Shown here: piece by piece, positions 14,753 through 55,018 of the stretch | Layout of the letters: every line of letters begins with the position of its first letter | Numbering within the stretch: position 1 is the first letter of the stretch | From: Synechococcus sp. UW140 | GTDB taxonomy: Bacteria > Bacteroidota > Bacteroidia > Chitinophagales > Chitinophagaceae | DNA: 64,000 nt | Direction of reading: 5' to 3' | NCBI GenBank assembly: GCA_943371295.1 | Contig: CALRUG020000001.1 | Coordinates: forward strand, 7,677 to 71,676 | Program-made: the position numbers and the translations under genes | The notes under the pieces: generated by a model | The model's database searches: none | Seen by the model: only the letters and a program-made list of their open reading frames with translations | What the model was told of the DNA's origin: nothing

Positions 14753-14771
14753 CCAATCAAACTAGATTATC

Positions 14772-16079: not shown

Positions 16080-16104
16080 TCTTTCTCTCCCAATTAGTTT
16101 GTAA

Positions 16105-16139
16105 AAAGGCCCCGATCATTTAATTGATTCGGGGCCTTT
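16105..16139 (+). terminator. Bidirectional intrinsic terminator between susD and the convergent SRPBCC gene
   Basis: AAAGGCCCCG...CGGGGCCTTT perfect stem flanked by A/T tracts. Confidence 0.8.
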
Positions 16140-16161
16140 CATTATAAGGTAAACACTAAAA

Positions 16162-16650: not shown

Positions 16651-16651
16651 T

Positions 16652-17761: not shown

Positions 17762-17782
17762 CGGGCTAATTTATAGGCAAAT

Positions 17783-19543
17783 CTATTGTATATTAACAAG
17801 AAAGGGAATCCTTGCTTGAGGAACACCCACCCAATTTTTTACTTGTTTTAGTTCACGCATCACTTGAATGGCAGCAGGATCAAATTGCTCTTTCATTATT
17901 TCAGTAGAGACAGATTTTTTATACCCACTCATGATTTGCTCAATAAAATTCTTCTTCTCAGGGTACTCTTTCAATTTTACTTCCGACTTTTTGATATCAG
18001 CCATTCGAGCAGCACAATCAATGGCATCTTGCAAACCACCTACTCTATCTGTTAGTCCAATTTTTTTGGCACTGGTGCCTGTCCAAACACGACCTTGGGC
18101 AATACTGTCAACATTGGCCACACCTAATTTTCTACCATCAGCAACCCTTGCTAAAAAAGTAGCATAAATACTATCTACAGCAGATTGAAAAAACCTTTTT
18201 TCATTATCGCCTAGCGGCTTACTAATATCTCCCATATCGGCATAAGGAGCAGTTTTAACTCCATCGAATGTGACGCCAATTTTATTCTTAAAGAAAGATT
18301 GCATATTGGGCACAACACTAAATACACCAATAGAACCAGTAATGGTATTAGCATTGGCAAAAACAGAATCTGCATTACAAGCAATATAATAACCACCAGA
18401 AGCAGCCACATCACCCATGCTTACCACAACAGGTTTTTCTTTTCTAATCAAAGAAATTTCTCTCCAAATCACTTCACTTGCTAAGGAACTTCCCCCACCT
18501 GAGTTGATTCTAAAAACAACCGCTTTAATAGACTTGTCGAATCTTATTTTACGCAGGATATTTTTATAACTATCACTTCCAATCATTTCATCATCTCCTT
18601 GACCAGACACAATATCACCGTTTGCAAAAACCAAGGCAATTTTTTCCGAACCACTTGGTTCAAAATCGGCAGCTTGCGCATAATCAGAAAGTGCAACAAA
18701 ATTGATTCTGGTTTTGAGTTCTTGTCTTAATTTCTTACTGATACTGGCCTTAATTTGGTCATCGTATTTTAAGTCGTCTACTAACCCATATTTCTTGGCA
18801 TCATGTGCAGTTTGAACCAACCCCTTTAAAGCCAATGATCGTAGAACAGCAGTGTCTTTATTCCGAGACATGGCAGCTGCCTGTAAAAAATGGGTGTATA
18901 ATTCTCCCAACCAAACACCTGTTTGTAATTTATTGGCATCGGTCATTTTTGTTTCTCTTAAAGGCTCCGTTGCACTTTTAAATTTACCTGCATAAAAAAT
19001 CTGCGGTTGAATTTCTAGTTTATCTAACATTCCTTTTAAGAAAAATAAATTGGTAGAGAACCCACTCCAATCAACACCACCTTGCGGGTTACAATACAAT
19101 TCATCTGCAGCGCTACCAATATAATATCCTTTCTGTGAAATCACTTCCCCATGCGCAATCACAAACTTTCCACTGTTTTTAAAATCTACCACAGCTTTAC
19201 GCAATTCTTCACTCGCAGCAAAACCATTGGCATTATCGGCACAAAGAATATACAAACCTTTTACTGCAGAATCTTGCTTTGCATGCTTTAAAAGTTGAGT
19301 AACCTGAAATAAGGAAGGAGCAACGTCTTCACCTTCATTTAATAGCTCAGCAAAAGGATCTTCTTGGTATTGTTCTTTAAAAGCAACTGATAAATCTAAG
19401 ACCAACACCGCTTTAGACCCAATAATGGGTTTATCAGAAGATGCAGCGCTGGTAGCAATTCCAATCAACACAAATACCCCAATTACTGTAAAAAGCACCA
19501 AAGCAATAAAGGTTGCGAAAACTATTTTTAAAAATCCTCTCAT
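17783..19543 (-). CDS. sppA: Signal peptide peptidase SppA, 67K type
   Basis: Tandem S49 domains; GKFKSATEP; RINSGGGS; SMGDVAASGGY; TITGSIGV. Confidence 0.95.
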   Translation of the reverse strand: MRGFLKIVFATFIALVLFTVIGVFVLIGIATSAASSDKPIIGSKAVLVLDLSVAFKEQYQEDPFAELLNEGEDVAPSLFQVTQLLKHAKQDSAVKGLYILCADNANGFAASEELRKAVVDFKNSGKFVIAHGEVISQKGYYIGSAADELYCNPQGGVDWSGFSTNLFFLKGMLDKLEIQPQIFYAGKFKSATEPLRETKMTDANKLQTGVWLGELYTHFLQAAAMSRNKDTAVLRSLALKGLVQTAHDAKKYGLVDDLKYDDQIKASISKKLRQELKTRINFVALSDYAQAADFEPSGSEKIALVFANGDIVSGQGDDEMIGSDSYKNILRKIRFDKSIKAVVFRINSGGGSSLASEVIWREISLIRKEKPVVVSMGDVAASGGYYIACNADSVFANANTITGSIGVFSVVPNMQSFFKNKIGVTFDGVKTAPYADMGDISKPLGDNEKRFFQSAVDSIYATFLARVADGRKLGVANVDSIAQGRVWTGTSAKKIGLTDRVGGLQDAIDCAARMADIKKSEVKLKEYPEKKNFIEQIMSGYKKSVSTEIMKEQFDPAAIQVMRELKQVKNWVGVPQARIPFLVNIQ

Positions 19544-37028: not shown

Positions 37029-37112
37029 GCCCAGATGGCGGAATTGGTAGACGCGCTAGACTCAAAATCTGGTTATCGCAAGGTAGTGCAGGTTCGATTC
37101 CTGTTCTGGGCA
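37029..37112 (+). tRNA. tRNA-Leu(CAA)
   Basis: Acceptor GCCCAGA/TCTGGGC; D-loop GGCGGAATTGGTAGACGC; anticodon arm CTAGA-CTCAAAA-TCTGG; long variable arm; T-arm GCAGG-TTCGATT-CCTGT. Confidence 0.97.
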
Positions 37113-37117
37113 CAAGC

Positions 37118-37148
37118 AAAAAATCCCGCACATAGTGCGGGATTTTTT
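37118..37148 (+). terminator. tRNA-Leu terminator
   Basis: AAAAAATCCCGCAC...GTGCGGGATTTTTT. Confidence 0.85.
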
Positions 37149-37320
37149 TATGGACACGACCGAAGCTTGCTTTAGGGAGTGGACAGAGAAAAATCCCAGA
37201 CTTGCGATGCAAGTGGGACTTTTTGCTTGGGTACGCCCCCCTCCTAGGAAGTCGGCGAAACGTAGTGGAGCCGACAATCCTGCTCTTCCTTGCGAATATC
37301 CTTTCATCAAAAAGACACAT

Positions 37321-37435
37321 AATTATTTCATCATATGATGATTTATTTATAACTTACTCATCCCAATTTATTCCTCCCCCAATTGTTAGTGTTTGTAAGT
37401 GTTTTACTGACCTTGGAATTTTATGTCTGGGAGTC
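37321..37435 (+). repeat. Diverged ~110 bp repeat, copy 1 (upstream of the ATPase)
   Basis: Shares colinear blocks with 40955-41065: AATTATTTCAT, ATGATTTA(T/G)TTATAACTTACT, CCCCAATTGTTA, TTTTATGTCT. Confidence 0.8.
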
Positions 37436-37472
37436 AGGGGGCAGTTCTGTAGAATAAAAATGATAATTAAAA

Positions 37473-39446
37473 ATGAGTTTTAAAATAATAGCAATAAGGC
37501 CATTATTTGGTATTAGTACAAAATATTTAAAAAACCTTGTGGCAGGTGAAGTTTATAATTTATGTAATGAATATACCCTTTTAAATAAAAATCTAATACC
37601 AGTCTCAATTGATGATGAAGTTTATTCAATTGAATATAAGAAGACCGTTCCTGATAATCTTTATTCTATTAGAAAAATAAACGGCGAAATTATAAATATA
37701 AATGTGTCAGCAGTTGTTGGCAAGAATGGAGCCGGCAAAAGCAGTTTAATGGATCTGCTGCTACACTCTGTTTTCGTAGTTTCAAACAATCTTGGCTTTG
37801 TAAATCCGAAAAGTTTTCTTGAACCTGAATCAAACACCGCCGAACAAAATGAGCAGCAAGCTTACAAAAAAGAGATAGAAGATATTAAAACAGGTTTGAA
37901 AGTTGAAATATACTATTTACTATATGATAAGTATTACAGACTTCTTATCTCAAATGGGCAATTCAACCTTACTTCATGTTTATCTGCAGATAAATATTCA
38001 TATTTTAGGGAGGATAACATTTCTATAAAAAATTATCAGGAGGTTAATAATTTCTTCTATACTATAGTAGTCAATTATTCATTTTATGCCCATAATTCTA
38101 ATTACAATAGTTTATGGTTGAAATCCTTCTTTCACAAAAATGATGGTTACCAATTACCAATTGTGATTAATCCTTTCAGGGATAAAGGGAATATGAACGT
38201 TAATTCTGAGACACTATTAACCCGTTCTCGTTTATTATCAAACATTCTAAGTATTGCCAACTATAAAAAAATCAACTACAAATCTGCAATAGATAAAGTT
38301 GAATTATACTTTGATAAAAATAAAGATTACAAGTTTCTGTCAAATGGTGAAATTCGGTTTAGTCATGGCTTTATTGAAAAGTTCAGAGCCCTTATCCTAT
38401 CTCCTCTTTATTCCAAGATGTTTGGAGAGTCTGTTTCATACCCAAATACAGATATACCCATAAAGGAATACGCAGAGATATACTTAATAAACAAGTTAAT
38501 TACCATTCCTTCTAAATATGAACCTTTTAAAGAATTTGACAAACGATTGGCCAAAGTAAAAGAACGGCCTGATAATTATGATTTAACACAAAGTGCTTCT
38601 AAGGCATATATTGATGACCTTTATGAAGACAGAAGCCATGTAACTTTAAAGGTGAGACAAACGCTTAATTTTCTGAAAGAAGATATATACAATTTGCCTT
38701 CCGATTTTACCTTTAAGAGCTATTTTGACATTGGCTCAGTTGTTCAAAAAATGAACAGTTTGAAAAGAAATGAATGGTTTACAGAATTGATTGACTATTT
38801 ACCGCCTCCATTCCTGTATAGCAGAATAAAATTCAAAGATAATAGTTATTTTGAAGATTTAAGTTCCGGGGAGAAACAAAAGATATATTCCTTGAATTCT
38901 ATCATCTATCATCTTAAAAACTTAGACTCAATCAATAAAAATAAATACCGAAATACTGAAAAAAAAATTTCGTCATATCAATCGGTAAACATGATATTTG
39001 ATGAAGTAGAACTTTATTATCATCCCCAGTATCAGAAAGAAACAATTTCAAGTCTACTCAATTTAATCAGAATATCAAACTTTAAGTATATCAAGAATAT
39101 AAACTTAATTTTCCTTACTCATTCCCCCTTTATACTTTCAGATATACCTATACAAAACACTATTCTTCTCACCATTGATAAGAAAACTGGAAGAAGTAAA
39201 TTAATAACGAAGAAAAAGCAGTCATTTGGGGCCAATATTCACGATTTGCTTACTGATAACTTCTTTTTAACCGGTACTTTAATAGGAGATTTAGCAGACC
39301 GGAAAATAATGAAATTAATAAACCAAATAAAAAAAGGTACGATTTCAAAAGATGATAAATTGCTTTTGAAACTTATTGGCGATACATTTTTAAAATCAAG
39401 TATAGAGCAATTCCAACTAAAAAATGATCAAGATACAAATCGATAA
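37473..39446 (+). CDS. ABC-type (AAA_21-like) ATPase, PtuA/Septu-like defence ATPase
   Basis: Walker A GKNGAGKS; signature LSSGE; Walker B IFDEVE..YHP; H-loop THSPF; C-terminal FGANIHDLL..NFFL. Confidence 0.85.
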   Translation: MSFKIIAIRPLFGISTKYLKNLVAGEVYNLCNEYTLLNKNLIPVSIDDEVYSIEYKKTVPDNLYSIRKINGEIININVSAVVGKNGAGKSSLMDLLLHSVFVVSNNLGFVNPKSFLEPESNTAEQNEQQAYKKEIEDIKTGLKVEIYYLLYDKYYRLLISNGQFNLTSCLSADKYSYFREDNISIKNYQEVNNFFYTIVVNYSFYAHNSNYNSLWLKSFFHKNDGYQLPIVINPFRDKGNMNVNSETLLTRSRLLSNILSIANYKKINYKSAIDKVELYFDKNKDYKFLSNGEIRFSHGFIEKFRALILSPLYSKMFGESVSYPNTDIPIKEYAEIYLINKLITIPSKYEPFKEFDKRLAKVKERPDNYDLTQSASKAYIDDLYEDRSHVTLKVRQTLNFLKEDIYNLPSDFTFKSYFDIGSVVQKMNSLKRNEWFTELIDYLPPPFLYSRIKFKDNSYFEDLSSGEKQKIYSLNSIIYHLKNLDSINKNKYRNTEKKISSYQSVNMIFDEVELYYHPQYQKETISSLLNLIRISNFKYIKNINLIFLTHSPFILSDIPIQNTILLTIDKKTGRSKLITKKKQSFGANIHDLLTDNFFLTGTLIGDLADRKIMKLINQIKKGTISKDDKLLLKLIGDTFLKSSIEQFQLKNDQDTNR

Positions 39447-40629
39447 TGTTCATCAAAGGAAACAAGAATACGAGATTGCAATAACTGATTTAGTTGCAAA
39501 CAGAATATTTGTATTGAAACAATCACTATCTCATTTAAATGGGGTGCCTGTTGATTTTACTACAGGGAGTTTTACTAGCTTTAAAGCAGTTACTAGACAA
39601 ATAGTGAATATTGTTGGTAATGTTATAAATATTTCAAAAGGCCATCAAGTTTATATTAATGAAATAAATAATTACCGTTCTAACCCTAATAACTTAGGCA
39701 ATATAAATATAGCCAATCTTATTCAGCTATGTGACTATTTATTGGCAAACAATGAGCAACAATTACGCAATCTTCTTGTGGAGGATGCAGTTAATTTAAT
39801 TAATCTTAATTCTGATATTTTAAATAATCATGGCCTCAATACGCAGCTAAATATTGAAATTATTAAGCTAGCATTTAATTACCAGAAATACGATGAAATC
39901 GCCAAGGAAATTAGAATATATTTTAGAGTAAATAATTTTACTAAGTTTTGCTCTTATTGCAATGCAGAACCAGTAACACACCAGACTAACTTTGTTGGCC
40001 AAGTTGTTAGATCTTATGAACTGGATCACTTTTATGATAAATCAAGGCATCCTCTTTTGGCCTATAGTTTATTTAATTTGGTTCCAAGTGATCACCATTG
40101 TAATGTTACGAATAAATCTACAACTGAATTTACCGATCAATACCATTTAAACCCACATCATATGGGCTATGCCGAACAATTCAGTTTTATCCCAATTGGC
40201 ATATCTACTGCCTTTGATGTAAACAAAATTGAAACTATTATTTTAGAGGCACAGGGTACATCCTTATACAAACAGATCAATGGACATAATCAATCAAATG
40301 AAGAACAAGGAAATTTGGGGAATTTAAATGTATTTAGAATCAGATCTAAATATTCAGACAAGCTGCATCTAGCCAGTACATTACTAAAACGCTTACATAA
40401 TGAGAATACTTACTTTAAACACTTAAAGAAATATTTGAAAAATCTTGATGGGATTGATAGAAAAAAAAACTATATAAAATGGTATGAAAAGGAATTAGAT
40501 GTTCAATTCAATTACATAGATTTTAACAATAAAGCATTTTCGAAGTTTTCCCGTGATATACATGATTATTATTTTCAGAATAATAAAACAAGATGGAATA
40601 GATATATTCTTGAATTAATAAACACTTAG
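39424..40629 (+). CDS. HNH endonuclease, PtuB-like, with long N-terminal extension
   Basis: CSYCN...LDHFYDKSRHPLLAYSLFNLVPSDHHCN; overlaps the ATPase stop (coupled). Confidence 0.82.
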   Translation: MIKIQIDNVHQRKQEYEIAITDLVANRIFVLKQSLSHLNGVPVDFTTGSFTSFKAVTRQIVNIVGNVINISKGHQVYINEINNYRSNPNNLGNINIANLIQLCDYLLANNEQQLRNLLVEDAVNLINLNSDILNNHGLNTQLNIEIIKLAFNYQKYDEIAKEIRIYFRVNNFTKFCSYCNAEPVTHQTNFVGQVVRSYELDHFYDKSRHPLLAYSLFNLVPSDHHCNVTNKSTTEFTDQYHLNPHHMGYAEQFSFIPIGISTAFDVNKIETIILEAQGTSLYKQINGHNQSNEEQGNLGNLNVFRIRSKYSDKLHLASTLLKRLHNENTYFKHLKKYLKNLDGIDRKKNYIKWYEKELDVQFNYIDFNNKAFSKFSRDIHDYYFQNNKTRWNRYILELINT

Positions 40630-40954
40630 TAAAGTGTCATTTACAAGACCAAATGAATAAGTCAGGCACGTTTCCAAAACACAGAGAAGACACATTTAAA
40701 GAAACTTTGCAAAAAAACCTGCTTTGTGTCAACATACAGTCAACAGATTAAGGTGATAAACATATCCAATTTATAAATCATTGGTATCAAGCACAAACAT
40801 CCGACAATAGGTTTTGTGAAATTGGGGCATGACCATAAAGTATTTATCGTAAGTACTTGCCCATGAAATGCATTTGTGGACACAAGCGTCTAAAGAATTT
40901 AAAGCTGAACAAAGTTCAGGGCATAGAATAAACTCTATACCATAATAAGCAGTA

Positions 40955-41065
40955 AATTATTTCATAAAATAATGATTTAGTTATAACTTACTTGGCTTAC
41001 CTATTCAACCCCAATTGTTACTTATTGTTAGTTTTTAAATGGTTCTTTATTTTATGTCTAGGAAT
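40955..41065 (+). repeat. Diverged ~110 bp repeat, copy 2 (upstream of the HEPN gene)
   Basis: Same block order and near-identical spacing as 37321-37435. Confidence 0.8.
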
Positions 41066-41124
41066 GCGTAATAAAGAGTTAAAAATGAATTCAAACTGAA
41101 ACACCCAAAAACTTAAAATATTTT

Positions 41125-42453
41125 ATGACACAATCGTACATTTTTGAAATACTAGCAATAGATAAAAATGGACAAACTAGTATCACAACAGGTGAATCAT
41201 TGGTATATGGGCTACTTTTCAGTGAATCACTATGGAAAAATAAAGAAGTTATAAAAATCTCTGATACCCAAAAAATAGTAGATAAGGAACAACAATTAGA
41301 ACTTAAATTTCAATCTGTTGATACAAGTTCGACATTAAATGATCTAATTGAAGCGGCATTTGTAATAAGAATAAAAGGAGAAAACTATACCCAATTAGAA
41401 ATATTTAGATATAATTTCCTTGTTCATCTAAGAAGAAAATTAAATTTTACTAACATAAGAATATTAAGAGATGATATTTCAACAAAAATTTCAAATGAAA
41501 TTTATCCATTAATTAATAAAGTGGAGAATTTACTAAGAAGATATTTAGTGAAGTTTTTCACCCAAAAGATTGGAGTTGATTGGTGGGAAGTAACAGCCCC
41601 TAGATTATTCACAGATAAACTAAATTCAAGAAAAGGGAATGAAAAAATATTTAGCAATGTTGTGGACACTGATGTTACTTTAATTGATTTTGACGATTTA
41701 GGCGAACTAATTTATAAACAAACAACTGGTTTTAATAAACAAGAAAATATTATATCGAGAGTAATGAACTCAAATACTGTTGATGAATTAAATATTTTGA
41801 AACAAGAATTACAAGGCAACTATACCAAATATTTCAAGGAAGCTTTTCAAGATAATAATTTCGAGAAGAAATGGAAAAGCCTATTTGAAATACGGAATAA
41901 AGTTGCACATAATAATTTGTTCATACACAATGACTTGGAAACGGCTATTCAACTCACTAAAGATTTAACAGAAATTATAAATTCAGCTGAATCTAGAATC
42001 GACGAATTCAAATTCAGCATTGAAGATCAAGAAGCTTTAAGACAAGCAACAATTGATGCTTATAAAGTAGCGGAAAATGAAATAGAAAATAATGAGAAAA
42101 CTTTGGAGCAGTTAGGAGTTAAAGTTGTAGGAAAAATTGAATTACCAAATGATGAATTTCAAAATAAAAATCAACTATTAATTATTACACAAGAGGATTT
42201 ACTTGAAGAATTAAATATTGCTGAAAGCAGAATTAATGATAGAAGTTATTTACCTTATGTTCCATTAAAATCATTTGTAACAAAAATATTAGGGAATAAA
42301 GGTTACTCCTATGGCCCTTCATATTCTTTAATAAATATTTTAAAAGAGAAAGGAATTATAGAAATATTTGATCCAGTTGATGTTAAATTAATGAATACAA
42401 TGGAATTTAATAATGGAGTCATTCCAAAGGGAATAAGAATAACAAGAAATTAA
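41125..42453 (+). CDS. HEPN-domain protein (R-x4-H), Swt1-like core with unknown N- and C-terminal domains
   Basis: ENLLRRYL...WW helix; TLIDFDDLGELI; catalytic-type IRNKVAHN. Confidence 0.78.
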   Translation: MTQSYIFEILAIDKNGQTSITTGESLVYGLLFSESLWKNKEVIKISDTQKIVDKEQQLELKFQSVDTSSTLNDLIEAAFVIRIKGENYTQLEIFRYNFLVHLRRKLNFTNIRILRDDISTKISNEIYPLINKVENLLRRYLVKFFTQKIGVDWWEVTAPRLFTDKLNSRKGNEKIFSNVVDTDVTLIDFDDLGELIYKQTTGFNKQENIISRVMNSNTVDELNILKQELQGNYTKYFKEAFQDNNFEKKWKSLFEIRNKVAHNNLFIHNDLETAIQLTKDLTEIINSAESRIDEFKFSIEDQEALRQATIDAYKVAENEIENNEKTLEQLGVKVVGKIELPNDEFQNKNQLLIITQEDLLEELNIAESRINDRSYLPYVPLKSFVTKILGNKGYSYGPSYSLINILKEKGIIEIFDPVDVKLMNTMEFNNGVIPKGIRITRN

Positions 42454-42578
42454 AATGAATGATTTTTAATATAAACATCCAAAATTTAGAATTAAAAGTA
42501 ATTGTTTAATCTAAAAAATTAATTTCAATCTAATTGAACTCTTTGATTTAAATAAACTAAAAAAATCAGATAAAAAGA

Positions 42579-44519
42579 ATGGACCCCTCAACTACCTCTA
42601 AAGATTTAAGGCTTAATAATGTCATCCAAGAAATTTATACTGGAGAGTATCAACTTCCCGAATTTCAAAGAGATTATATTTGGAAAGATGCAAATGTAAA
42701 AGGATTATTTGAATCTGTTTTACTTGGCCATCCAATTGGTTCTATTTTGCTTTTAGAATTGAATAAAGAAAATCCATTACTCGCATGGGTTAATTTTAGT
42801 GAAATAATCCCCCCAGAACAAAGACAATTTGAATATAATGGAACAGATAAAGTTCCTCCAAGGTTTTTAGTTTTAGACGGTCAGCAAAGACTAACATCAC
42901 TTAGTAGACTAACTAATGGCACATCAGAGAAAATTTGGTATTTAAATTTAAAGACTATTAAAGAAAGTTGGGAAAAAAATAATTGCCCAGAATCAGAAAA
43001 AGAACTCAAAGAATGGATTGAATTGGGATTAGATATTACAAGTGCACTTTCTAAACAAAATAAAACTGCAGACCAATTAAAAGATTTAAGAGGCAAAAAC
43101 CGAAAAATGCCTTTAACACTTTTATCAGAAAAGACAAGATTTACAACTATCTTAAATGAAGTTAGAGATGAGATTAATCAGACAGTAACAGAAAAGAATT
43201 ATGAAATAAAAAATCATACGAAATTAAAAATTAAAAAAAGTAAAAACGAGTTACAAGAAATAGTTAATGAAAGTTCCATTTGGCTTAAATTTTTGTCAGC
43301 GCCGATAAACCGTCTATTTGATAACTATTTTAATTATAACATGCCATCTGTAATTGTTTCAGAAAAAATGGGAATAACAGGTGTATGTAAAGTATTCACT
43401 AAAATTAATACTTCAGGTATCGCTTTAGGAGCATTTGATTTATTAGTAGCTGTAATGTACCCTAAAGATATACGCATAAAGCAAATGTTTGATGAAGCAA
43501 TTGATAAGTACCCTTTGATAAAAGTATTAGATGAAATTTCAAAAAGATACTTATTACAAACTATAGCATTAATGGCCGGAATTTCACCAAAAACAGCTTC
43601 TTTACCCGAACTGATAAAACCAAAACATATAGAAAATTTTTGGGATACGGCTTGTGAAGCCTTGGAAGAGGCATGTAATCAAATTGATTTAAACTGTGGA
43701 TCTGCTTTACAAAAAGGAACAGATAAATTTTTAGTATATTCCCCATTAGTAGCAAGTGTTGCTTGTATATTAAAAGAATTTCCAATAAACATAAAAGATG
43801 GAAGATTAAAATTACTTAGACAACATAAATTAAAAGCTTGGTATTACGGTTCTGGGGTGGCTGACAGGTACAGTGATGGAACTGATGCCAAACAAAATCA
43901 AGATATTAATGAAATGAGGTTATGGTTTAGTTCGGAAAACATGGAAACAAATATTCCAACATGGTTAAAAGAACTTTGGAGTGATTTTAACTCTTCAAAA
44001 AATGCATCATTAGGAAAAGCAATCATTTCCATGATAAACTTTAAGGAACCTAAAGATTTTTATGAAGATAAACCAGTAGGGCCTGCTTCGGTGGTACCGT
44101 GCGACTTGCATCACATTTTCCCCAAAGCTGCACTCCGAGAACAAATAATGGCAAAAAGACAAATAAATGATAAGGGTAAAGCAGAAAAAATTATTAAATC
44201 GGAATTTTCAGTAGATTCTATTTTAAACCAAACGTGGATTTTTTCAGATACTAATCGAAAAATTATCGCCGACAAATTACCATCTATATATTTAGAAGAA
44301 ATAATTACTCAATACGGAGGAAAAACATCAGGGAAAAAGAAATTATTAGAAATCATGCAAAGTCATTGTATAAATGCTGAGGCAGTAGAAGCATTACTAA
44401 AGGACGATTACGAAACCTTTATACTTGAAAGAAAAAAATCAATAATTTCAGAATTTAAAACAACAGGTTTTGTTCAAAATTTAATTGATCAAAAACCAAA
44501 TGACATTGATGATGAATAG
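42579..44519 (+). CDS. DUF262 (ParB/Srx-like NTPase) + C-terminal His-Me/DUF1524-like nuclease, GmrSD/SspE family
   Basis: YQLPEFQRDYIW; HPIGSILL; LVLDGQQRLTSL; F.KINTSG..L; C-terminal DLHHIFPK...SILNQT...TNRKI..K.PS.YL. Confidence 0.88.
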   Translation: MDPSTTSKDLRLNNVIQEIYTGEYQLPEFQRDYIWKDANVKGLFESVLLGHPIGSILLLELNKENPLLAWVNFSEIIPPEQRQFEYNGTDKVPPRFLVLDGQQRLTSLSRLTNGTSEKIWYLNLKTIKESWEKNNCPESEKELKEWIELGLDITSALSKQNKTADQLKDLRGKNRKMPLTLLSEKTRFTTILNEVRDEINQTVTEKNYEIKNHTKLKIKKSKNELQEIVNESSIWLKFLSAPINRLFDNYFNYNMPSVIVSEKMGITGVCKVFTKINTSGIALGAFDLLVAVMYPKDIRIKQMFDEAIDKYPLIKVLDEISKRYLLQTIALMAGISPKTASLPELIKPKHIENFWDTACEALEEACNQIDLNCGSALQKGTDKFLVYSPLVASVACILKEFPINIKDGRLKLLRQHKLKAWYYGSGVADRYSDGTDAKQNQDINEMRLWFSSENMETNIPTWLKELWSDFNSSKNASLGKAIISMINFKEPKDFYEDKPVGPASVVPCDLHHIFPKAALREQIMAKRQINDKGKAEKIIKSEFSVDSILNQTWIFSDTNRKIIADKLPSIYLEEIITQYGGKTSGKKKLLEIMQSHCINAEAVEALLKDDYETFILERKKSIISEFKTTGFVQNLIDQKPNDIDDE

Positions 44520-44737
44520 GGAACCAATAAACTAATTAGTTAATACAAAATATTTTGACCCTGAAATACTTAGGGGAAAAAGACTCATCTATAAACTAAA
44601 GAGCTAATTACTTGACAATATCTTACAAATCCAAATTGGAAGTTTGCAAATATTAAAATATTTGAATAGTAATATTTCACAAAAAGAATATTTTCTCTAC
44701 CAACAAAATCTATTTTTTCTAACCAAAGAAATACTTT

Positions 44738-44769
44738 AAGTCTTAATAAAACCAAAAGTATTAAGACTT
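44738..44769. promoter_or_regulatory. Perfect 11 bp inverted repeat, candidate operator for the XRE/C-protein
   Basis: AAGTCTTAATA-N10-TATTAAGACTT, ~130 bp upstream of the regulator ATG. Confidence 0.45.
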
Positions 44770-44901
44770 TATTTTAATAACTAAATCCATATCTGAATTT
44801 ATATACAAAATCAGTAACCGCATAAATTGTTAATAATAATCTTAAAATATAGATTGATTTATTAAATAATGTCTATATTTTTGGATTTAAATGTCCAAAA
44901 A

Positions 44902-45213
44902 ATGAAGTCCAACTATACATTACTAACAGGTGACATCATAAGGCAAATAAGAGAGACCAAACAACTTCCATTAAGAAAAATAGCTGCAATACTTGACATT
45001 GATACTTCTTATTATAGCAAGATTGAACGTAATATGAAAAAAGCAACAAAAGAGCAAATCCAACAACTAGAATTCTTTTTTGAGTTAAAGAAAAACACAT
45101 TAATGATACCATATTTAAGTGAAAGAATCTATTTAGAAATATCGGATGAAGATTGTGCGGAACAAGTATTAAAAGTTGCAGAAAAAAAAGTTAAATACAA
45201 AAAAAGGAAATAA
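44902..45213 (+). CDS. XRE-family HTH regulator (controller-protein-like) leading the R-M operon
   Basis: IRQIRETKQLPLRKIAAILDIDTSYYSKIERN HTH; 5 nt from the first MTase. Confidence 0.85.
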   Translation: MKSNYTLLTGDIIRQIRETKQLPLRKIAAILDIDTSYYSKIERNMKKATKEQIQQLEFFFELKKNTLMIPYLSERIYLEISDEDCAEQVLKVAEKKVKYKKRK

Positions 45214-45218
45214 ATAAA

Positions 45219-46289
45219 ATGCAGAAAAAATTTAAGGTCATAGATTTATTTTCAGGCTGTGGAGGGTTCTCTTTTGGTTTTGAATCAGCAGGTTTTCATG
45301 TAATATTGGGTGTTGACAATGACAAAGCAGCATTAGAAACATTTAAAGCCAATCACAACAATTCAAAAACATTACTTGCTGACCTACACGAAGACCAAGC
45401 AATTGAGAATATAATTAACGAGGTAAAAGGTCATAAAATAGATGTAATAATAGCAGGTCCCCCTTGTCAAGGTTTTTCACTAACAGGTGCAAGGCAAAAA
45501 GATGATGACCGCAATAAATTATTTTACTCCGTATTTAAACTTGCAAAAAGATTAAAACCACAAGCGGTTATTATTGAAAATGTTCCGGGACTTGCAACTC
45601 TTTATAATGGTCAAGCAAAAGAAGCTATACTTGATGAATTTAAAAAAATGAAGTTAGCATCAAATTTCAAAGTACTATATGCACCTGATTTTGAAGTTCC
45701 ACAAATAAGAAAAAGAATATTTTTTGTTGGACTTAATTCAAAAATTGGAACATTTGAATTTCCAGATAAAGTTTTACCGCCAGAAAAGTATAATACAACA
45801 TCAATTGCAATTTCTGATTTACCGTCAAGAGAAGCTGAATTCGGTTATGAAGAAGATAAATATGATAAGCCACCTAAAAATGAATATCAAAAGAAAATGA
45901 GAAATGGTGCTAAAAAATTATTTAATCATGTAGCAACCAAACATACAGAACATGTCATCAATGTTATCGCTCAGGTTCCAGAGGGCGGTAATCATAAAGA
46001 TTTACCCGAAGGAGTTGGTGATAGTAGAAAATTTAATGAAGCTTGGACTAGATATCATAGCAATAAACCCTCAAAAACAATAGATACAGGTCATAGAAAT
46101 CATTTTCATTATAAATACAACAGAGTTCCAACTGTACGAGAAAATGCAAGACTACAATCCTTCCCAGATAATTTCATTTTTACTGGTTCAAGAACTCAAC
46201 AGAATAAACAAGTCGGAAATGCTGTACCACCGCTACTAGGCTTTCATATAGCAAAGCAGTTATTAAAATACTTAAATAAAAAATCATGA
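45219..46289 (+). CDS. DNA (cytosine-5) methyltransferase 1
   Basis: Motif I DLFSGCGG; motif IV GPPCQGFS; VI ENV; VIII QIRKR; IX-X RENARLQSFPD...GNAVPP. Confidence 0.96.
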   Translation: MQKKFKVIDLFSGCGGFSFGFESAGFHVILGVDNDKAALETFKANHNNSKTLLADLHEDQAIENIINEVKGHKIDVIIAGPPCQGFSLTGARQKDDDRNKLFYSVFKLAKRLKPQAVIIENVPGLATLYNGQAKEAILDEFKKMKLASNFKVLYAPDFEVPQIRKRIFFVGLNSKIGTFEFPDKVLPPEKYNTTSIAISDLPSREAEFGYEEDKYDKPPKNEYQKKMRNGAKKLFNHVATKHTEHVINVIAQVPEGGNHKDLPEGVGDSRKFNEAWTRYHSNKPSKTIDTGHRNHFHYKYNRVPTVRENARLQSFPDNFIFTGSRTQQNKQVGNAVPPLLGFHIAKQLLKYLNKKS

Positions 46290-47521
46290 ATATAAAGCTC
46301 AAAACAATTGATTTATTTGCAGGCTGTGGCGGGCTATCTGATGGATTTGAACAAACTCAATTATATGAAACACTTGCTTGTGTTGAGTGGGAAAAAGAAC
46401 CATGTAATACACTTGTAAATCGCTTGCAGAATAAATGGGGAATTAAAAAAGCGAATGAAATAGTTTTACATTTTGATATTCAAAGAATTGATGAATTAAT
46501 AAATGGATGGGATAATGATTTATTGTATGGTTCAAATCAGGGTCTGAAAAAAATCATCAATAAAAAAAAGGGAATTGATGTAGTTATAGGAGGTCCTCCT
46601 TGCCAAGCTTATTCTATTGCGGGAAGAATTCGGGATGAGAATGGCATGAACGATGACTATAGAAACTATCTTTTTGAGAGCTACTTAAAAGTTGTTGAAG
46701 AATTCAAACCTAAAGCATTTATTTTTGAGAATGTTCCTGGCATGTTAAGCGCAAAGCCTGGAGGATTATCTATAGTTGATAGAATCACGAAAGCAATTTT
46801 CAATAAAGGTTACGAAATAACTAATAACTTAAGAGACAAAGCCTTAATTGATTGTACTAAATATGGGGTTCCTCAGGCTAGGAAAAGAATGGTAATTTTA
46901 GGAGTAAATAGAGAATTAATAAAGGAACCCCCTCAAAATGCATTAAACTATTTCTATGATGTAATCTTCCCAATTTATCAGTCAAAAAAAATATCAACGG
47001 TTAAAGATGCACTTTTTGATCTTCCTAAACTACACCCACTTGGAGAACCAATAAAAATTGGGAATAAAAAATACTCCCATTCATTCGACAAATTCAAAAT
47101 TAGGAATCATGAACCTCGTATGCATAACAGAAGAGATGTAGAAACATTTGGCCTTTTAACGAGAGACATACAATCAGGTCAAAACAAGTATTCATCTGCT
47201 GAATCATTGAAAAACTTATATTATGAAATAACAGGGAAAAAATCAAACATTCACAAATACCACGTTTTAAAATGGAATAAACCAAGCAATACAATCCCTG
47301 CTCATCTTTATAAAGATGGCTTAAGGCATATTCACCCAGATCCTGAACAATCAAGGAGTATAACAGTTCGAGAGGCAGCAAGGCTTCAATCTTTTGATGA
47401 TGATTTTGAATTTTTAGGAAGTGTGTCAGATCAATACAAAATGGTAGGAAATGCAGTACCCCCAAAATTTGCAAAAGCAATTGGCTTTGCACTAAATGAT
47501 TTCATTAATAAATTTTACTAG
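46286..47521 (+). CDS. DNA (cytosine-5) methyltransferase 2
   Basis: DLFAGCGG; GGPPCQAYS; FENVPG; PQARKR; REAARLQSF...GNAVPP. Confidence 0.96.
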   Translation: MNIKLKTIDLFAGCGGLSDGFEQTQLYETLACVEWEKEPCNTLVNRLQNKWGIKKANEIVLHFDIQRIDELINGWDNDLLYGSNQGLKKIINKKKGIDVVIGGPPCQAYSIAGRIRDENGMNDDYRNYLFESYLKVVEEFKPKAFIFENVPGMLSAKPGGLSIVDRITKAIFNKGYEITNNLRDKALIDCTKYGVPQARKRMVILGVNRELIKEPPQNALNYFYDVIFPIYQSKKISTVKDALFDLPKLHPLGEPIKIGNKKYSHSFDKFKIRNHEPRMHNRRDVETFGLLTRDIQSGQNKYSSAESLKNLYYEITGKKSNIHKYHVLKWNKPSNTIPAHLYKDGLRHIHPDPEQSRSITVREAARLQSFDDDFEFLGSVSDQYKMVGNAVPPKFAKAIGFALNDFINKFY

Positions 47522-47522
47522 A

Positions 47523-48491
47523 ATGCTTTTTACAGAAAACCTAGAAGAAATAATCTTTAACAGACATCAACTTTTTCAAACTGATGAATTTATAGTTGTT
47601 TCTGGTTATCTGGGACCAAAACCTGTACAAAGACTACATACACTTCCATTTAATACTAGAGTAATATATGGCATGTATGGATCTGATGGAATACAAACTA
47701 ATTTACATGATGCTTTAATCAAGATCCAAAATCAATTTAATAACATAAACATATTCTACTCAGATTTACCTGTACACTCAAAATGCTATGTTTGGAGAAA
47801 TAATGGTCAAATTATTCACGCACTTGTAGGTTCTGCAAATTTCTCTACAAATGGCCTTACAACACCATTTAGAGAAATCCTTGCTGAGACAACTTTTGAT
47901 ACGTTTAAGCCTTTAAATGATTATATCAATCGGATACTTCAAAATTCTTATTCTTGTTTAGAAATTGTTGTAGTAGAAAAACAAGGCATTACTAATGAGG
48001 ATAATGAATGTAAAATGTCCCTTTTAATGGATGATGGTCAAACACATAATGCAAGTGGATTGAATTGGGGATATATGGCAAATGGTCAACCTGCAGAAAA
48101 ACGGGGAATAAATGATGCTTGCATACCGATTAGAATTGAACATTTAAGAATATTCCCAGATTTATTTCCGCAAAAACAAATCTACCCTATACAAGAAGAT
48201 GGAAGAGGAAGGGCCCAGAGACATAATGATGCGATTGAAATTTTATGGGACGACGGAATGAGTATGGAAGGATTGTTAGAAGGATCGCAACCGTTAGACA
48301 CCATACTATATCCTAAACAAATTAGTTCTTTCCCCTCAAAAAGTCAAATGGGTGAGTATTTAAGAAATAGAATCGGGGTCCCTTTAGGCCAACCTGTAAG
48401 GAGATTTCACTTGGATAAATACGGCAGGACTGATATTTCTGTTTCAAAAATTGGGGATGGAATTTATAAATTTGACTTTTCAGTAAAATAA
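47523..48491 (+). CDS. PLD-superfamily restriction endonuclease, NgoFVII/BfiI-like
   Basis: HSK..W...GSANFS PLD catalytic motif; C-terminal SGLNWG...IPI B3-like DNA-binding region. Start at ATG 47523, right after the MTase stop. Confidence 0.85.
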   Translation: MLFTENLEEIIFNRHQLFQTDEFIVVSGYLGPKPVQRLHTLPFNTRVIYGMYGSDGIQTNLHDALIKIQNQFNNINIFYSDLPVHSKCYVWRNNGQIIHALVGSANFSTNGLTTPFREILAETTFDTFKPLNDYINRILQNSYSCLEIVVVEKQGITNEDNECKMSLLMDDGQTHNASGLNWGYMANGQPAEKRGINDACIPIRIEHLRIFPDLFPQKQIYPIQEDGRGRAQRHNDAIEILWDDGMSMEGLLEGSQPLDTILYPKQISSFPSKSQMGEYLRNRIGVPLGQPVRRFHLDKYGRTDISVSKIGDGIYKFDFSVK

Positions 48492-48583
48492 AATGGTACC
48501 TAGCATATTTATATTTTGCTTAAATGATTAAAATATTTTAAAACTTACACAACTTTCAAAATTAATAATCACTTTCTCCCCCC

Positions 48584-49105
48584 TCACAACCTAATTTTAT
48601 ACACCCCAACCCCATTCCTCGGGATATCATTAATAATAAACTGTTCCCCCTCCTCCGCTTCCTCAATAAAACTAAAAGAAGACCAAGAACTAGGCAGCCC
48701 TTTAAAAAGCAACGTAAATTGAAGCGACTCATGGTGCCCATTGTATAAATGCTTCTCAGGCGCAATAGGAACACCAATAGCTTGTAACAAAGGCAGCCTA
48801 TCCTCAGCGTCATTACCCTTTAAATAAGTCTTAGGACTAATATTAATCCATCCACCTAAATTAAACCTAGGCTCAGCATAATGCGTGCAATGAATAATGG
48901 TTTGCTTTTCTACTTCAGGAACAGATACCCATTCCAATTGAACGATGGGTGAATTAGGTTTGATACAATAATCGTCCCCCACTAACTTCACTTCACCTTC
49001 CAACCCAAGAATACATTTATCCTTTATCTAAATAGGCGAATGCCCAAAACGCTTAATCATCGCCATTCGTATCGCACCTAAATAACTCTTCAAAAGCTTA
49101 TTCAT
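48584..49105 (-). pseudogene. Conserved-looking Bacteroidota hypothetical protein; in-frame TAG at 49028-49030 separates ATG 49105 from the body (or a short gene starting at TTG 49003)
   Basis: The minus frame reads MNKLLKSYLGAIRMAMIKRFGHSPI*IKDKCILGLEGEVK... continuously into the 139 aa ORF. Confidence 0.45.
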
Positions 49106-49111
49106 AATCAT

Positions 49112-49519
49112 TTATTTAGTTACTTTAATAACAGTTTCATCTAACACAATCTGATTAATAAAATCAATATTAGCCGGTATAAACAACACCAACGAGAATT
49201 CCGAAAAAGCCTGGATATAGTTCCCATTCACTTTACTAGACTTAGGAATCTGTAATACTTTTTTCACCAGGTTTGACTGATAATCAACATTCACCTGCAC
49301 TAAAGGAAAATCAAAAGACTGCTTTGAAAAATACTGAACCGTAGGGCTACTAAATACCAACGCAAGCGGTTTGGTAAAGTCTTTCTTTTTACGATAAGCC
49401 AAAGATTGGAAAATCTCTATTTCAGAGGAAGCCAGCTCACACTCAAGGGTAAAACTTTTTTTACGGTTTTTAACTACAACAGTTGTTGTTTCTGCAAAAG
49501 GGAATTTTAAATGCTTCAT
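49112..49519 (-). CDS. Divergent DUF192-like protein
   Basis: LECELASSEIEIFQSLAYRKK...LVFSSPTVQYFSKQSFDFPL aligns by eye to the DUF192 pattern VEIA.T..E...GLM.R...LF.F......FWMKNT..PL, but lacks several conserved residues. Confidence 0.5.
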   Translation of the reverse strand: MKHLKFPFAETTTVVVKNRKKSFTLECELASSEIEIFQSLAYRKKKDFTKPLALVFSSPTVQYFSKQSFDFPLVQVNVDYQSNLVKKVLQIPKSSKVNGNYIQAFSEFSLVLFIPANIDFINQIVLDETVIKVTK

Positions 49520-49675
49520 TGCGATTAGGTTTTAAAAGTTAATCGCACCAAGATGAAGAGGAGAAGCTTACAGCGCTTTATTTTGACTAAGTAGTCCTCA
49601 TCTCAAACACCACCGTGGACTCGCGTCTCGGTTGGTTTCTACTCACGTAGAATCTTGATGACAAAACAAAAGTAG
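49520..49675 (-). ncRNA. Putative structured 5' leader / ncRNA with two GNRA-capped hairpins
   Basis: TACTTTTG -7 box at 49667-49674; UUCUAC-GUGA-GUAGAA; long stem capped GAC-GCGA-GUC; GAGAUGA/UCAUCUU multistem; 8 bp stem abutting the AUG. Confidence 0.6.
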
Positions 49676-51284: not shown

Positions 51285-51617
51285 ATGAAAATCAGGTTAG
51301 TCACACAACAATCCATTGAAGAATTCATTGAACAAAATGCTAATAGCTTGAATGGCTTTAGAACTTGGTTAACTCTTTTAAATTCTGCAAATTGGGAAGA
51401 ACCTTCGGACATGAAAGAAACATATAAAACGGCAGATTTATTAGGAAATGGGACTAATAGAGTGATTTTCAATATAGGGGGCAATAACTATAGAATGATA
51501 TGCAAATATCAATTCGGAGCTACGCAAGTTCATCTTTACATAAAGTGGATTGGCACACATTCCGATTACACAAAACTTTGTAAAAACAACAAACAATATA
51601 CCATTTCAACATACTAA
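51285..51617 (+). CDS. higB: HigB-family mRNA interferase toxin
   Basis: RVIFNIGGNNYRMI...YIKWIGTHSDY. Confidence 0.9.
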   Translation: MKIRLVTQQSIEEFIEQNANSLNGFRTWLTLLNSANWEEPSDMKETYKTADLLGNGTNRVIFNIGGNNYRMICKYQFGATQVHLYIKWIGTHSDYTKLCKNNKQYTISTY

Positions 51618-51627
51618 AATTCATCCC

Positions 51628-52077
51628 ATGACCCATCTACCCTATACCATCATCAAATCAAAGGCACAATACTATAAGTATTGTAATATTCTTGAAGCTT
51701 TGGTAGAAAGCAAAAAGAAAACCAAATCCATTCAGGATGAAATAGAACTACTCGAATTATTGATAGAAAAATATGATGCAGAGAATAGCAGCTTTACCAA
51801 TGCAGACCCTGTAGAGATTATCAAATCACTCATGACCGAACACAATATGAAAGCTGTAGACTTAGCCGAGCTTTTAAATGTGAGTGAAGGGCTGGTATCA
51901 GACATGCTGAAATATAAAAAAGGACTATCTAAAGAAACCATTCGAATTCTATCTCAAAAATTCAAAATCAGTCAGGAAGCATTGAATAAACCTTATGCAT
52001 TAAAACTAACTCCTCTTATCAAAATAAGAACCATAAAAAAACGACCCGCAGCCAGAAAAATAGCAAGGACTTTTTGA
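51628..52077 (+). CDS. higA: HigA-family HTH antitoxin
   Basis: ELLELLIEKYD; DPVEIIKSLMTEHNMKAVDLAELL...VSDMLKYKKGLS. Start at ATG 51628. Confidence 0.88.
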   Translation: MTHLPYTIIKSKAQYYKYCNILEALVESKKKTKSIQDEIELLELLIEKYDAENSSFTNADPVEIIKSLMTEHNMKAVDLAELLNVSEGLVSDMLKYKKGLSKETIRILSQKFKISQEALNKPYALKLTPLIKIRTIKKRPAARKIARTF

Positions 52078-53070
52078 TTACACGGCAACCCCACTCCCCC
52101 CAATCCTCAATAATTTCTCCGAAATATTTTTCAAATAATTCGCTTTTATATTTTCTCTTAGGAAAGAGTTGTTAACCATCTCAACAACCATAGGTTGCTT
52201 GACAATAAATTGCGCCAATATTCTTTCTGCTCTTTTAGGAAGGATAGACAGTCGTTTAGCAAGTTCTAAAAAATTGGGTCGTCCATAATATCCGTATTTA
52301 CTATAAAAGGCAGACTCATAATCTCCTTGATAGAGTTGCAATGCTGTATCCGATTCACCTGGACTATGAATGACAGTGCTTAATAAATCATAAGCAGGAC
52401 TTAACTGGTATTCACCATCCGTATTGCGGATCAAAGAAAAATTCTTAAGATGGGCATCCCCGTTTGAAAAGACATAATTAAAAACCACCAGTGTGAACAA
52501 ACGCTCACATGCGGTAATGGAAGCTGGTACGTATTGCTGAATCAGTTTTCCGATGTCTTCATAACTTCCCTGGTACTTAAAATTATCTCCATGGGTGCTT
52601 GAAGTCTTGCCGGATATTTGTGCAAAGTCTTCCTGTAAATATTTTGTGCCATCTGCAGCCAAATCAAATCGTTTAGTCAGATAAGCAGGCGTACCATCTT
52701 TAAAATATATAAGTACATTTTCGGCAGTAGGAATATTAAAAACCTGTTTAGCAATCTGCATAGTTAAATGCTCATTCTCTGGCACCTGATCAATCTGAGC
52801 CAACTGTTGGTAAGGTGGAATGGGTTTGAGTATATAAGTGCCTCCCCTTTCAGTCAGCACCAGTTCTTTATTTTCTAGCTTTAGTGAATACTTCAATTGT
52901 ACCCCTGAAATTGATAAGCGTTTACTATGCGCTTGAAAGTACGGGAGGTTCACATCTTTAGGCGTATCAAATGGCAATATGGGAGAAGTGCGTAACCCAG
53001 CAAACATTGTCTTCCTGCAGGAAAGACAATATCCCTCTTTTACTTCCTTATAACATCCCATGCATTGCAT
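52078..53070 (-). CDS. HipA-family kinase (HipT-like, C-terminal domain only)
   Basis: SISGVQLK; YILKP; NEHLTMQIA; YLTKRFD; QEDFAQ; NGDAHLKNFSL; LSPAYDLL. Confidence 0.92.
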   Translation of the reverse strand: MQCMGCYKEVKEGYCLSCRKTMFAGLRTSPILPFDTPKDVNLPYFQAHSKRLSISGVQLKYSLKLENKELVLTERGGTYILKPIPPYQQLAQIDQVPENEHLTMQIAKQVFNIPTAENVLIYFKDGTPAYLTKRFDLAADGTKYLQEDFAQISGKTSSTHGDNFKYQGSYEDIGKLIQQYVPASITACERLFTLVVFNYVFSNGDAHLKNFSLIRNTDGEYQLSPAYDLLSTVIHSPGESDTALQLYQGDYESAFYSKYGYYGRPNFLELAKRLSILPKRAERILAQFIVKQPMVVEMVNNSFLRENIKANYLKNISEKLLRIGGSGVAV

Positions 53071-53390
53071 TAGTCAATCGTTTTAATAGTTATAGCACCA
53101 ATCGTGTCTTCACCGGCAGTTTGCAATAGCCGAGTAAAATCATCGCGTTCATCTATTTTCAAGGTCCTACATTGGATATCCTTATTCACCCCTTCTGCCA
53201 ATAACCCTTGAAAAAAAGCGAATAAATGGTCTGATGTATATATGGGTTGGTTTTTGGGTAAAGTCAGACTTATTGCAGGTTGAGCATCATCATGATAATA
53301 AGCCAGATCATAACTAAAACTAAATTGACCCTCCCGATTTTTAGTCAAGTATCCTGCCAGTTTTCCATTGTTATAAACTGCTCCGGTCAT
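53070..53390 (-). CDS. HipA N-terminal (couple_hipA / HipS-like) protein
   Basis: AGYL...F.F.YD...ISLTLP...LFAFFQGLLAEG...DTIGAITI. Confidence 0.9.
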   Translation of the reverse strand: MTGAVYNNGKLAGYLTKNREGQFSFSYDLAYYHDDAQPAISLTLPKNQPIYTSDHLFAFFQGLLAEGVNKDIQCRTLKIDERDDFTRLLQTAGEDTIGAITIKTID

Positions 53391-53689: not shown

Positions 53690-55018
53690 CTAAACAAACC
53701 GATTAATCAAATTCTCCAAATACTCTTGCCTACCACTAATTACAGCAGGCTCCCCGGCTTGAATGGCATAACTACGTAAGTCTTCTAATACCAAATTCCC
53801 ATCCGCAAAATCCTTACCCCGGCCTTGATCAAATGACGCATAACGTTGCGTGCGGAAACTGCGATACTCAGATTGGTTCAATATTTTATCCGCAACAATT
53901 AATGCCCTGGCAAATGCATCCATACCACCAATATGCGCATAAAATAAATCAGCAGGGTCGGTACTATTTCGACGAATCTTCGCATCAAAATTAATTCCAC
54001 CACCCGCAAAACCATCGGCTTCTACAATCACCAACATGGCTTCCACCAATTCATTAATATTCGTAGGGAATTGATCGGTGTCCCAACCATTTTGATAATC
54101 TCCCCTATTCGCATCCATACTACCTAATAAACCAGCATCAGCAGCAACTTGTAACTCATGCTGAAAAGTGTGCCCAGCAAGGGTTGCGTGGTTCACTTCA
54201 ATATTCAATTTAAAATCATTTAACAAATCATACTGACGTAAAAAACCAATCACTGTTTCGCAATCGTAATCATACTGGTGTTTACTAGGCTCACAAGGTT
54301 TGGGCTCTATAAAAAATGTTCCCTTAAATCCATTCTTACGCGCATAGTCTTTGGCCATATGCAAGAAGCGCGCAAGATGATCTTTCTCGCGTTTCATATT
54401 GGTATTGAGCAAACTCATATACCCTTCTCTACCACCCCAAAAAACATAATTTTCTCCACCCAATGCAATGGTTGCATCTAATGCCGCTTTCACTTGTGCA
54501 CCTGCATGTGCAAGCACCTGAAAATCTGGATTCGTAGCAGCACCATTCATATACCTTCTGTTACTGAACAAATTAGCAGTACCCCAAAGCAATTTCACGC
54601 CACTGGCTTGTTGCTTCTCTTTAAAATAATCCGTAATAGCCCCTAAGCGACGTTCATTCTCATGGATATCATTGGTATAATCCACTGCATCCACATCATG
54701 AAAACAATAATATGGAACACCTAGTTTGGTAATAAATTCAAAAGCCGCGTCGGCTTTTTGCTTGGCTCTTTCAACTGCGTCTGATGTTTGATCCCAAGGA
54801 AATAAATGAGTGGGTTCACCAAACGGATCAGCACCACTACCACAGAAGCTATGCCAATAAGCGCAAGCAAAACGCATCCACTCTTTCATCGTTTTTCCAG
54901 CCACCACGCGACCTTCATCGTACCAACGAAACGCAAGCGGGTTATCACTCTCCAACCCTTCGTAATTTATTTTTCCAATTCCTTTGAAATATTCTTTTTG
55001 GCCAAGTAAAATAGACAT
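53690..55018 (-). CDS. xylA: Xylose isomerase
   Basis: RFACAYWH; FHDVD; WGGREGY; [14 protein letters not shown]; [12 protein letters not shown]; GWDTDQFP. Confidence 0.98.

Follow-up and report, generated by a model that had tools for sequence, protein, structure and literature searches.

We analyzed a 64-kb stretch of DNA (hereafter the window) in which a non-coding element next to defence genes is present in two related copies, A and B. Judged by its flanking genes, the window comes from Sediminibacterium, family Chitinophagaceae. Both copies lie beyond a tRNA-Leu(CAA) gene (37029–37113, + strand; ARAGORN; Rfam tRNA score of 58.7 bits), the only one at this place, which occupies an equal position in all relatives and is the fixed anchor of the hotspot. 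The tRNA gene is followed directly by a non-coding platform (37114–37466, +), delimited by synteny, alignments and metagenome depth, within which copy A is located (37321–37435, +). Next comes a two-gene minimal defence cassette (37466–40632, +), delimited by PADLOC, Pfam and the limits of DNA homology, which encodes a Septu-like ATPase (PDC-M62A, 37473–39446, +; PADLOC and Pfam) and an HNH-like partner (PDC-M62B, 39424–40629, +). The original prediction had called this pair an ATPase-HNH operon; the HNH part of that label comes from PADLOC PDC-M62B and PtuB-like matches only, with no Pfam match for the protein. An inter-cassette element, X (40650–40799, +), and copy B then precede the gene for a Swt1/Abi2-like HEPN protein (41125–42453, +), the first of the remaining, co-oriented defence cargo (41125–48491, +), a block assigned with Pfam, PADLOC and GC content. 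Behind the HEPN gene this block encodes a GmrSD-type restriction enzyme (42579–44519), a helix-turn-helix (HTH) controller protein (44869–45213), two cytosine-5 DNA methyltransferases (45219–47521) and an NgoFVII-type restriction endonuclease (47496–48491). Every island gene between 37.4 and 48.5 kb is on the + strand, and GC content falls across this interval from 38–41% in the flanks to 27–32%. On the right, comparison with relatives shows xylA (53690–55018, −) to be the nearest gene with firm conservation.

Four colinear blocks shared by A (37321–37435) and B (40955–41065) had been described in the original prediction, and they are confirmed. The blocks are seen in pairwise alignment and are recovered by a repeat finder as families D6, D9 and D13, and at three or fewer mismatches, the 21-mer ATGATTTAKTTATAACTTACT in block 2 has exactly two occurrences in the window, compared with an expectation of 0.03. 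When the B region was aligned locally to the platform, the score was 98–115, more than 20 standard deviations above shuffled sequences (26–30 ± 3–4), and a family-profile nhmmer search matched B with E = 1.4e-20. Exact runs of at least 10 nt, four of them within 113 nt, arose in 0.2–0.8% of simulations of independent-site decay. The A/B repeat and its blocky pattern are real. Both regions are AT-rich, as a chance resemblance of AT-rich intergenic DNA would have it, but the 21-mer count, the alignment score and the profile match refute that explanation, which deserves practically no credence. The placement of the two copies was right and their extents were too short, because A is part of the 37114–37466 unit and B runs from 40873 to approximately 41098, with a hairpin upstream of the blocks. 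The two copies have the same orientation, no inverted repeats flank them, and the 64 kb contain no third. An exact scan of a genome collection with the 21-mer returned only two matches, both in Firmicutes and judged to be due to chance.

Beginning at the tRNA, the platform consists of terminator hairpin 1 (about 37119–37150), hairpin 2 with a T run (37194–37218), the motif GGGTACGCCCCCC (37229–37241), a hairpin 3 resembling repetitive extragenic palindromes (REP-like, 37246–37281), an AT-rich stretch and a core (37363–37446) that opens with CCTCCCCCAATTGTTA; all are on the + strand and were placed from alignments of the family. The core carries an imperfect hairpin, with the arms CTGAC (37407–37411) and GTCAG (37433–37437), laid out as ACTGACC-N16-GGGAGTCAGGGGGC, and its end is marked by the GGGAGTCAGGGGGC motif (37429–37442). 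Copy A starts 208 nt past the end of the tRNA; its blocks 1 and 2 fall in the AT-rich stretch and blocks 3 and 4 in the core. These two parts differ in their conservation. Identity between the window and its relatives is 85–92% in the core and 63–80% in the AT-rich stretch of most relatives, compared with 61–72% at the four-fold degenerate sites of neighboring genes (47% for S. salmoneum). The stem and GGGAGTCAGGGGGC are retained even in S. salmoneum. Because identity in the core exceeds that of the neighboring four-fold sites, the comparison indicates that the core is under purifying selection; by the same measure, the stretch that holds blocks 1 and 2 evolves close to the neutral rate. In RNAalifold predictions, CCCC/GGGG closes two hairpins and the main stem is invariant. 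Hairpin 3 alone covaries, with two stem variants that differ by compensatory changes; covariation is uninformative for the main stem because it never varies. Hairpin 3 also behaves in a REP-like manner, with tandem duplicates in the relatives L006, L012 and L032 (about 10760–10850).

Loci from related strains were read over 8–20 kb each. In nine related genomes, synteny with the window extends from about 26.3 kb to 37457–37474, after which the sequences are unrelated, so that copy A belongs to the conserved part. The A-type element follows tRNA-Leu in at least nine Sediminibacterium genomes and tRNA-Met in two further sequences (L086 and the metagenome contig L107), and comparison of these loci shows the platform to be inherited with the core genome. 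Platform size across the clade is 350–540 nt. In most relatives, a further 170-nt AT-rich extension follows the platform, and this extension was not found anywhere in the window. A degenerate-pattern scan of the genome collection revealed a second platform copy in Sediminibacterium sp. FEMGT703S, located after tRNA-Met and with the same hairpin architecture; this is the only genome found with two copies, both of which follow tRNA genes. In its core, this tRNA-Met paralogue has 94% identity to the window, and in its surroundings only 48–64%. Photorhabdus and other matches to the degenerate core pattern in genomes and metagenomes were judged to be chance, as was the hairpin pattern in viral contigs, where 17 matches are about the number expected by chance and none fits the family profile.

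The cargo beyond the platform is different in every genome and defence-related wherever it can be annotated, which confirms the predicted tie of homologues to tRNAs and variable defence genes. It includes Gabija, type III restriction-modification (RM; twice), a cytosine-5 methyltransferase with a HATPase protein, Mrr, AIPR and SMODS, an AAA_21 ATPase, and Eco57I-type RM with GmrSD, the last of these in the cultured strain S. salmoneum NBRC 103935 (L011). What stands directly after the platform is always a defence system or an unannotated gene, and in the window and eight related loci, the platform-adjacent genes are co-oriented and point away from the tRNA. Read depth from other metagenomes is zero beyond 37471. 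At least two additional strains in the sample from the source lake have the left flank in common with the window and branch off within or after the platform. The assembly graph of one source lake run (X1) branches inside copy A (37326–37445), where a left-hand depth of 11.7 gives way to depths of 4.7, 3.7 and 2 along three continuations; the sample thus contains several strains with a common flank that diverge from one another starting at the platform.

Homologues of the ATPase-HNH operon (75–79% protein identity) were found in at least three unrelated contexts, such as downstream of a UDG gene or an Eco57I-like gene. Their DNA homology with the window is limited to 37459/37466–40619/40632, beginning at most 14 nt (about 10 nt) before the ATG and ending at the stop codon; the PDC-M62 pair moves as a bare two-gene unit (window 37459–40632). 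For homologues of the HEPN protein (76–86% identity), homology begins only at 41137, and the regions upstream are unrelated to B. Look-ups of exact protein sequences returned the HEPN protein from the source metagenome contig alone and gave no record for HscB. A, X and B are all absent beside these cassettes in other genomes. Given such short spans of homology, the cassettes are minimal, and A, X and B are not parts of them. The idea that A and B are the ends of a cassette therefore finds no support in the ATPase-HNH pair, which occurs elsewhere with neither element. Nor is there support for B as a promoter or operator moving together with the HEPN gene, because it is lacking upstream of the HEPN homologues. 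The left junction is not fixed between genomes either: unrelated cassettes begin 10–190 nt past the platform end, with junctions at about +10, +15–20, +30 (the window) or +190 nt past the hairpin, depending on the genome.

Some spacers between cassettes contain repeats of their own. Element X is about 150 nt long, follows the HNH-like gene and is common to the window (40650–40799) and, in L007, a spacer that follows a type III RM cassette (17908–18060), with a second L007 location at 18341–18424; it is absent next to the ATPase-HNH homologues in other genomes. Two further inter-cassette repeat families of 175–195 nt, R1 and R2, occur in the hotspots of relatives just before unrelated genes (L003, 12859–13055 and 17735–17929; L012, 11970–12166; L032, 12126–12316 and 18868–19037; L004, 12112–12288), and the Gabija cassette in L003 is flanked by two copies of R1. 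R1 has terminal inverted repeats (AAC..GCATTGGC // GCCAATGC..GTT), and R1, R2 and the platform extension share the ending ..YGTTR. Despite this attC-like look, with terminal inverted repeats and GTT ends, the DNA-fold z-scores of R1 and R2 are weak. The window spacers at 42440–42590, 44505–44880 and 48480–48600 show no attC-like fold (z of −1.1 to −1.8).

Copy B in full (40873–41098, +; local alignment) comprises a decayed GGGTAC region, a homologue of hairpin 3, the blocks (40955–41065) and a destroyed core hairpin, the loop of which (TTTTATGTCT) is identical in A and B. The hairpin-3 homologue is intact (CTGAAC, 40905–40910; GTTCAG, 40914–40919) and is of the type present in L007 and L009, not that of copy A in the window. 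B is 57–61% identical to every tRNA-Leu-type platform, with window A no closer than the others, 51–52% identical to the tRNA-Met type and 43% identical to S. salmoneum; this divergence is about the neutral level of the clade. The stem and GGGAGTCAGGGGGC, invariant in the family, are lost in B. Matches between B and the family consensus are not enriched in constrained columns (35/59, 59%, compared with 107/188, 57%; p = 0.77), and its changes run from strong to weak bases (G/C to A/T) 42 times and from weak to strong 19 times, although G/C makes up only 96 of the 247 consensus bases. Conserved blocks separated by diverged spacers had been taken as a sign of protein-binding sites, and these figures speak against that view: B has kept AT-rich, weakly constrained parts and lost the invariant ones. 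The AT-rich blocks would have survived, and the GC-rich motifs between them would have been lost, because of AT-biased decay. The simplest reading of the alignments is that B is a relic platform freed from the constraint that acts on the family. Nor is B supported as a recurring signature: no second B-type copy was detected in the fetched loci or in genome and metagenome collections scanned with exact degenerate patterns, which divergent copies could escape.

Taken as a whole, the hotspot combines a fixed, selected border with minimal co-oriented cassettes and heterogeneous junctions, and it has no local recombinase. No recombinase gene was detected between 26 and 61 kb with Pfam among the listed open reading frames (ORFs) of at least 100 amino acids, minus short ones under longer annotated genes, and beyond the annotated island genes, no hotspot ORF exceeds 139 amino acids. 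We consider it probable, if far from settled, that A is the selected border of a tRNA-linked core defence hotspot and B a relic platform that an additive, homology-anchored insertion left behind. Cargo would be exchanged through recombination anchored in the conserved left flank or platform, and the other end would be joined either in shared spacers, such as the element X held in common with L007, or illegitimately. B would be the remnant of an older or imported tRNA-Leu-type platform, on the tRNA side of which a fresh platform with the ATPase-HNH cassette was added to an older platform with the HEPN gene. Such an additive event would yield the order A, cassette, X, B, cassette. B may then have drifted neutrally toward A+T, with its GC-rich functional motifs eroding and its AT-rich stretches remaining, and this drift would account for the pattern of conserved blocks with diverged spacers. 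We infer that the similarity of A and B reflects common descent rather than a shared present-day function. Homology-facilitated illegitimate recombination, or Campbell-type additive integration, as known from studies of natural transformation, can use a homologous anchor on one side to add foreign genes and leave a duplicated or truncated anchor behind. The arrangement of A, cassette and B matches this outcome, a likeness drawn from the end product alone.

Several observations weigh against this account. Independent-site decay would leave the A–B matches less clustered than they are (p of 0.002–0.008), and A and B have one derived base in common (ACTTACT, compared with ACTT[T/C]CT in all other copies); together, the clustering and the shared base may leave room for residual constraint, or for short-patch gene conversion, acting on B. 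B would be non-functional solely by the measure of constraints seen in the A family. The proposed recombination history rests on a single genome, and the presumed ancestral arrangement, in which the platform is followed directly by the HEPN gene, was found in no strain.

Among the alternatives, the blocks could constitute a shared cis-regulatory element; as a promoter, operator or leader, they would place the ATPase-HNH operon and the HEPN gene under the joint control of one trans-acting factor. Each copy immediately precedes the gene that opens a module, 27–60 nt from its start codon, the cassettes bring almost no upstream DNA and would need an external promoter, and the clustering of the blocks is non-random. 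Metatranscriptome contigs from an L012-like strain span the platform as far as block 2. These contigs are partial and ambiguous, running from the tRNA end no farther than block 2, and could be read-through from the tRNA trailer; no RNA runs with the window's own platform were found. A scan for the Bacteroidetes sigma-A promoter (TTTG at −33 and TAnnTTTG at −7, spaced 17–23 nt) gave no match in A, B or the orthologues, a consensus-only result that is not proof of absence. Its weak matches lie outside A and are not conserved, and Chitinophagaceae promoters could differ from the consensus, a further point on which our preferred account is exposed. A sigma-70-type promoter scan, unsuited to this phylum, was not above shuffles and was discarded. 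No regulator gene lies beside A or B, the invariant motifs are gone from B, which leaves mostly weakly constrained AT-rich sequence, and B turned up in no other sequence searched. Co-regulation through the blocks is thus unlikely. For the core of the platform itself, a leader or insulator for promoterless cassettes and a protein-binding landing pad are the leading guesses, both of them predictions. An Rfam 15 search at a permissive threshold, covering the window and the tRNA-Met paralogues, gave nothing with E ≤ 1 in the platform, in B or in those paralogues beyond sub-threshold, chance-level Thr- and Leu-leader matches over the terminator hairpins after the tRNA (37097–37206).

An integron- or att-like capture system would make the platform a landing site and B and the spacer repeats its partner sites, with a recombinase encoded elsewhere inserting the cassettes. 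The co-oriented arrays of minimal cassettes, the sharp platform–cassette junction, the presence of the platform at two different tRNA loci and the hairpin loop common to A and B are all in keeping with this, as are R1 and R2 in relatives, whose terminal inverted repeats part unrelated genes and whose ..YGTTR ends recur in the platform extension. However, the left junctions vary by up to 180 nt among genomes, homology between A and B extends over about 225 nt, far beyond a crossover core, and the inverted-repeat arms of B are destroyed. The lack of a recombinase at 26–61 kb, of attC-like structure in the other window spacers and of strong folds in R1 and R2 points the same way. No A × B joint, whether from a deletion or a circle, was seen in the source metagenome contigs; because contigs alone were searched, this carries little weight. 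Integrons are, moreover, very rare in Bacteroidetes (PMC9024848). We regard such a system as quite unlikely, and it is unsupported here. It is no less doubtful that the core serves as the landing pad or promoter-leader of a cassette system with its recombinase in trans, for which R1, R2, X and relics such as B would be partner sites. If it were true, a recombinase acting in trans would stock tRNA-linked hotspots in Chitinophagaceae, a Bacteroidota analogue of the integron. The repeats could instead be attL/attR scars of tandem genomic islands that target the tRNA, given that the island adjoins a tRNA and that the relative L005 has an integrase element at tRNA-Leu. That element has an 18-bp repeat of the tRNA 3′ end at its boundaries and separates the tRNA from the intact platform, which lies downstream of it; the platform is therefore chromosomal with respect to tRNA-targeting integrases. 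In the window, A begins well past the tRNA, the 26–61 kb interval encodes no integrase, and the 22-mer of the tRNA 3′ end has no second match at up to three mismatches, so that the predicted association with a tyrosine recombinase finds no support. The scar explanation is already largely refuted and very improbable. The L005 element itself is 7.2 kb long (10645–17821), encodes a tyrosine integrase (16516–17628) and an AAA_25 protein, and is inserted in the 3′ end of tRNA-Leu between direct repeats of GATTCCTGTTCTGGGCAC.

The preferred account, a selected border with a relic copy, places the locus close to the core defence hotspots cDHS1 and cDHS2 of Pseudomonas aeruginosa, which have conserved genes and a tRNA or tmRNA at their flanks; many of their occupants lack mobile-element hallmarks, and exchange through conserved flanks has been proposed (Johnson et al., 2023; PMC10250203). 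The window resembles them in its fixed chromosomal place, its bounds of core genes, the tRNA at its edge and defence content that varies between strains and species: the left flank is kept in nine genomes with different cargo in each, and xylA is kept on the right. It differs in having for a border a long non-coding unit under selective constraint, reused after a second, different tRNA, in the decayed copy of that border inside the island and in its host, a member of the Chitinophagaceae; a border platform of this kind is not described for cDHS (PMC10250203). Like an integron (intI, Pc, attI and attC), the locus has a conserved platform followed by co-oriented, largely promoterless cassettes that include defence genes, with repeats between some of them. 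Unlike an integron, it has no integrase (IntI) gene by the platform and no single precise insertion point (attI, G|TT), the left junctions of its family being heterogeneous, and A–B is a long decayed homology instead of a structured recombination site. With tRNA integrative islands it has in common the use of tRNA-Leu, whereas the integrase and the tRNA 3′ repeat that L005 carries are both missing from the window, and the platform lies outside the att site. A and B also differ from a miniature inverted-repeat transposable element (MITE) or an insertion sequence (IS) end, because they have no terminal inverted repeats and are not dispersed in many copies.

The locus offers a clean example of a core defence hotspot in a little-studied genus of freshwater Bacteroidota, with a border that is a conserved, selected non-coding unit reused at two different tRNAs. 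The platform can serve as a practical handle in searches for new defence cassettes in Chitinophagaceae, and it may act in regulation or recombination at the borders of hotspots that have no mobile-element genes. Relic B, if correctly read, would be a rare internal timestamp of island growth by addition. It also counsels caution, in that conserved blocks with diverged spacers can be produced by AT-biased decay and not by binding sites.

On the right side of the variable region, the interval from the island to xylA (48.5–53.7 kb) is a mosaic of a gene with an S-adenosylmethionine (SAM) riboswitch, HigBA and a split HipA; contigs of close relatives reach only 3–4 kb past xylA. The SAM-I/IV riboswitch (49569–49666, −; 58.9 bits, over the gathering score) is upstream of an ORF (49112–49519, −) that encodes a 135-amino-acid protein without a Pfam family, with one distant relative only in the genome collection. 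This protein was considered as a marker of the right flank and dropped in favor of xylA, because it is not conserved in relatives. The riboswitch segment is kept in the related strain L111. The toxin-antitoxin genes (51285–53390) comprise HigB/HigA and the HipA gene, split into an N-terminal ORF (53070–53390) and a C-terminal ORF (52078–53070). In close relatives, a SocA/Panacea-type pair takes the place of HipA.

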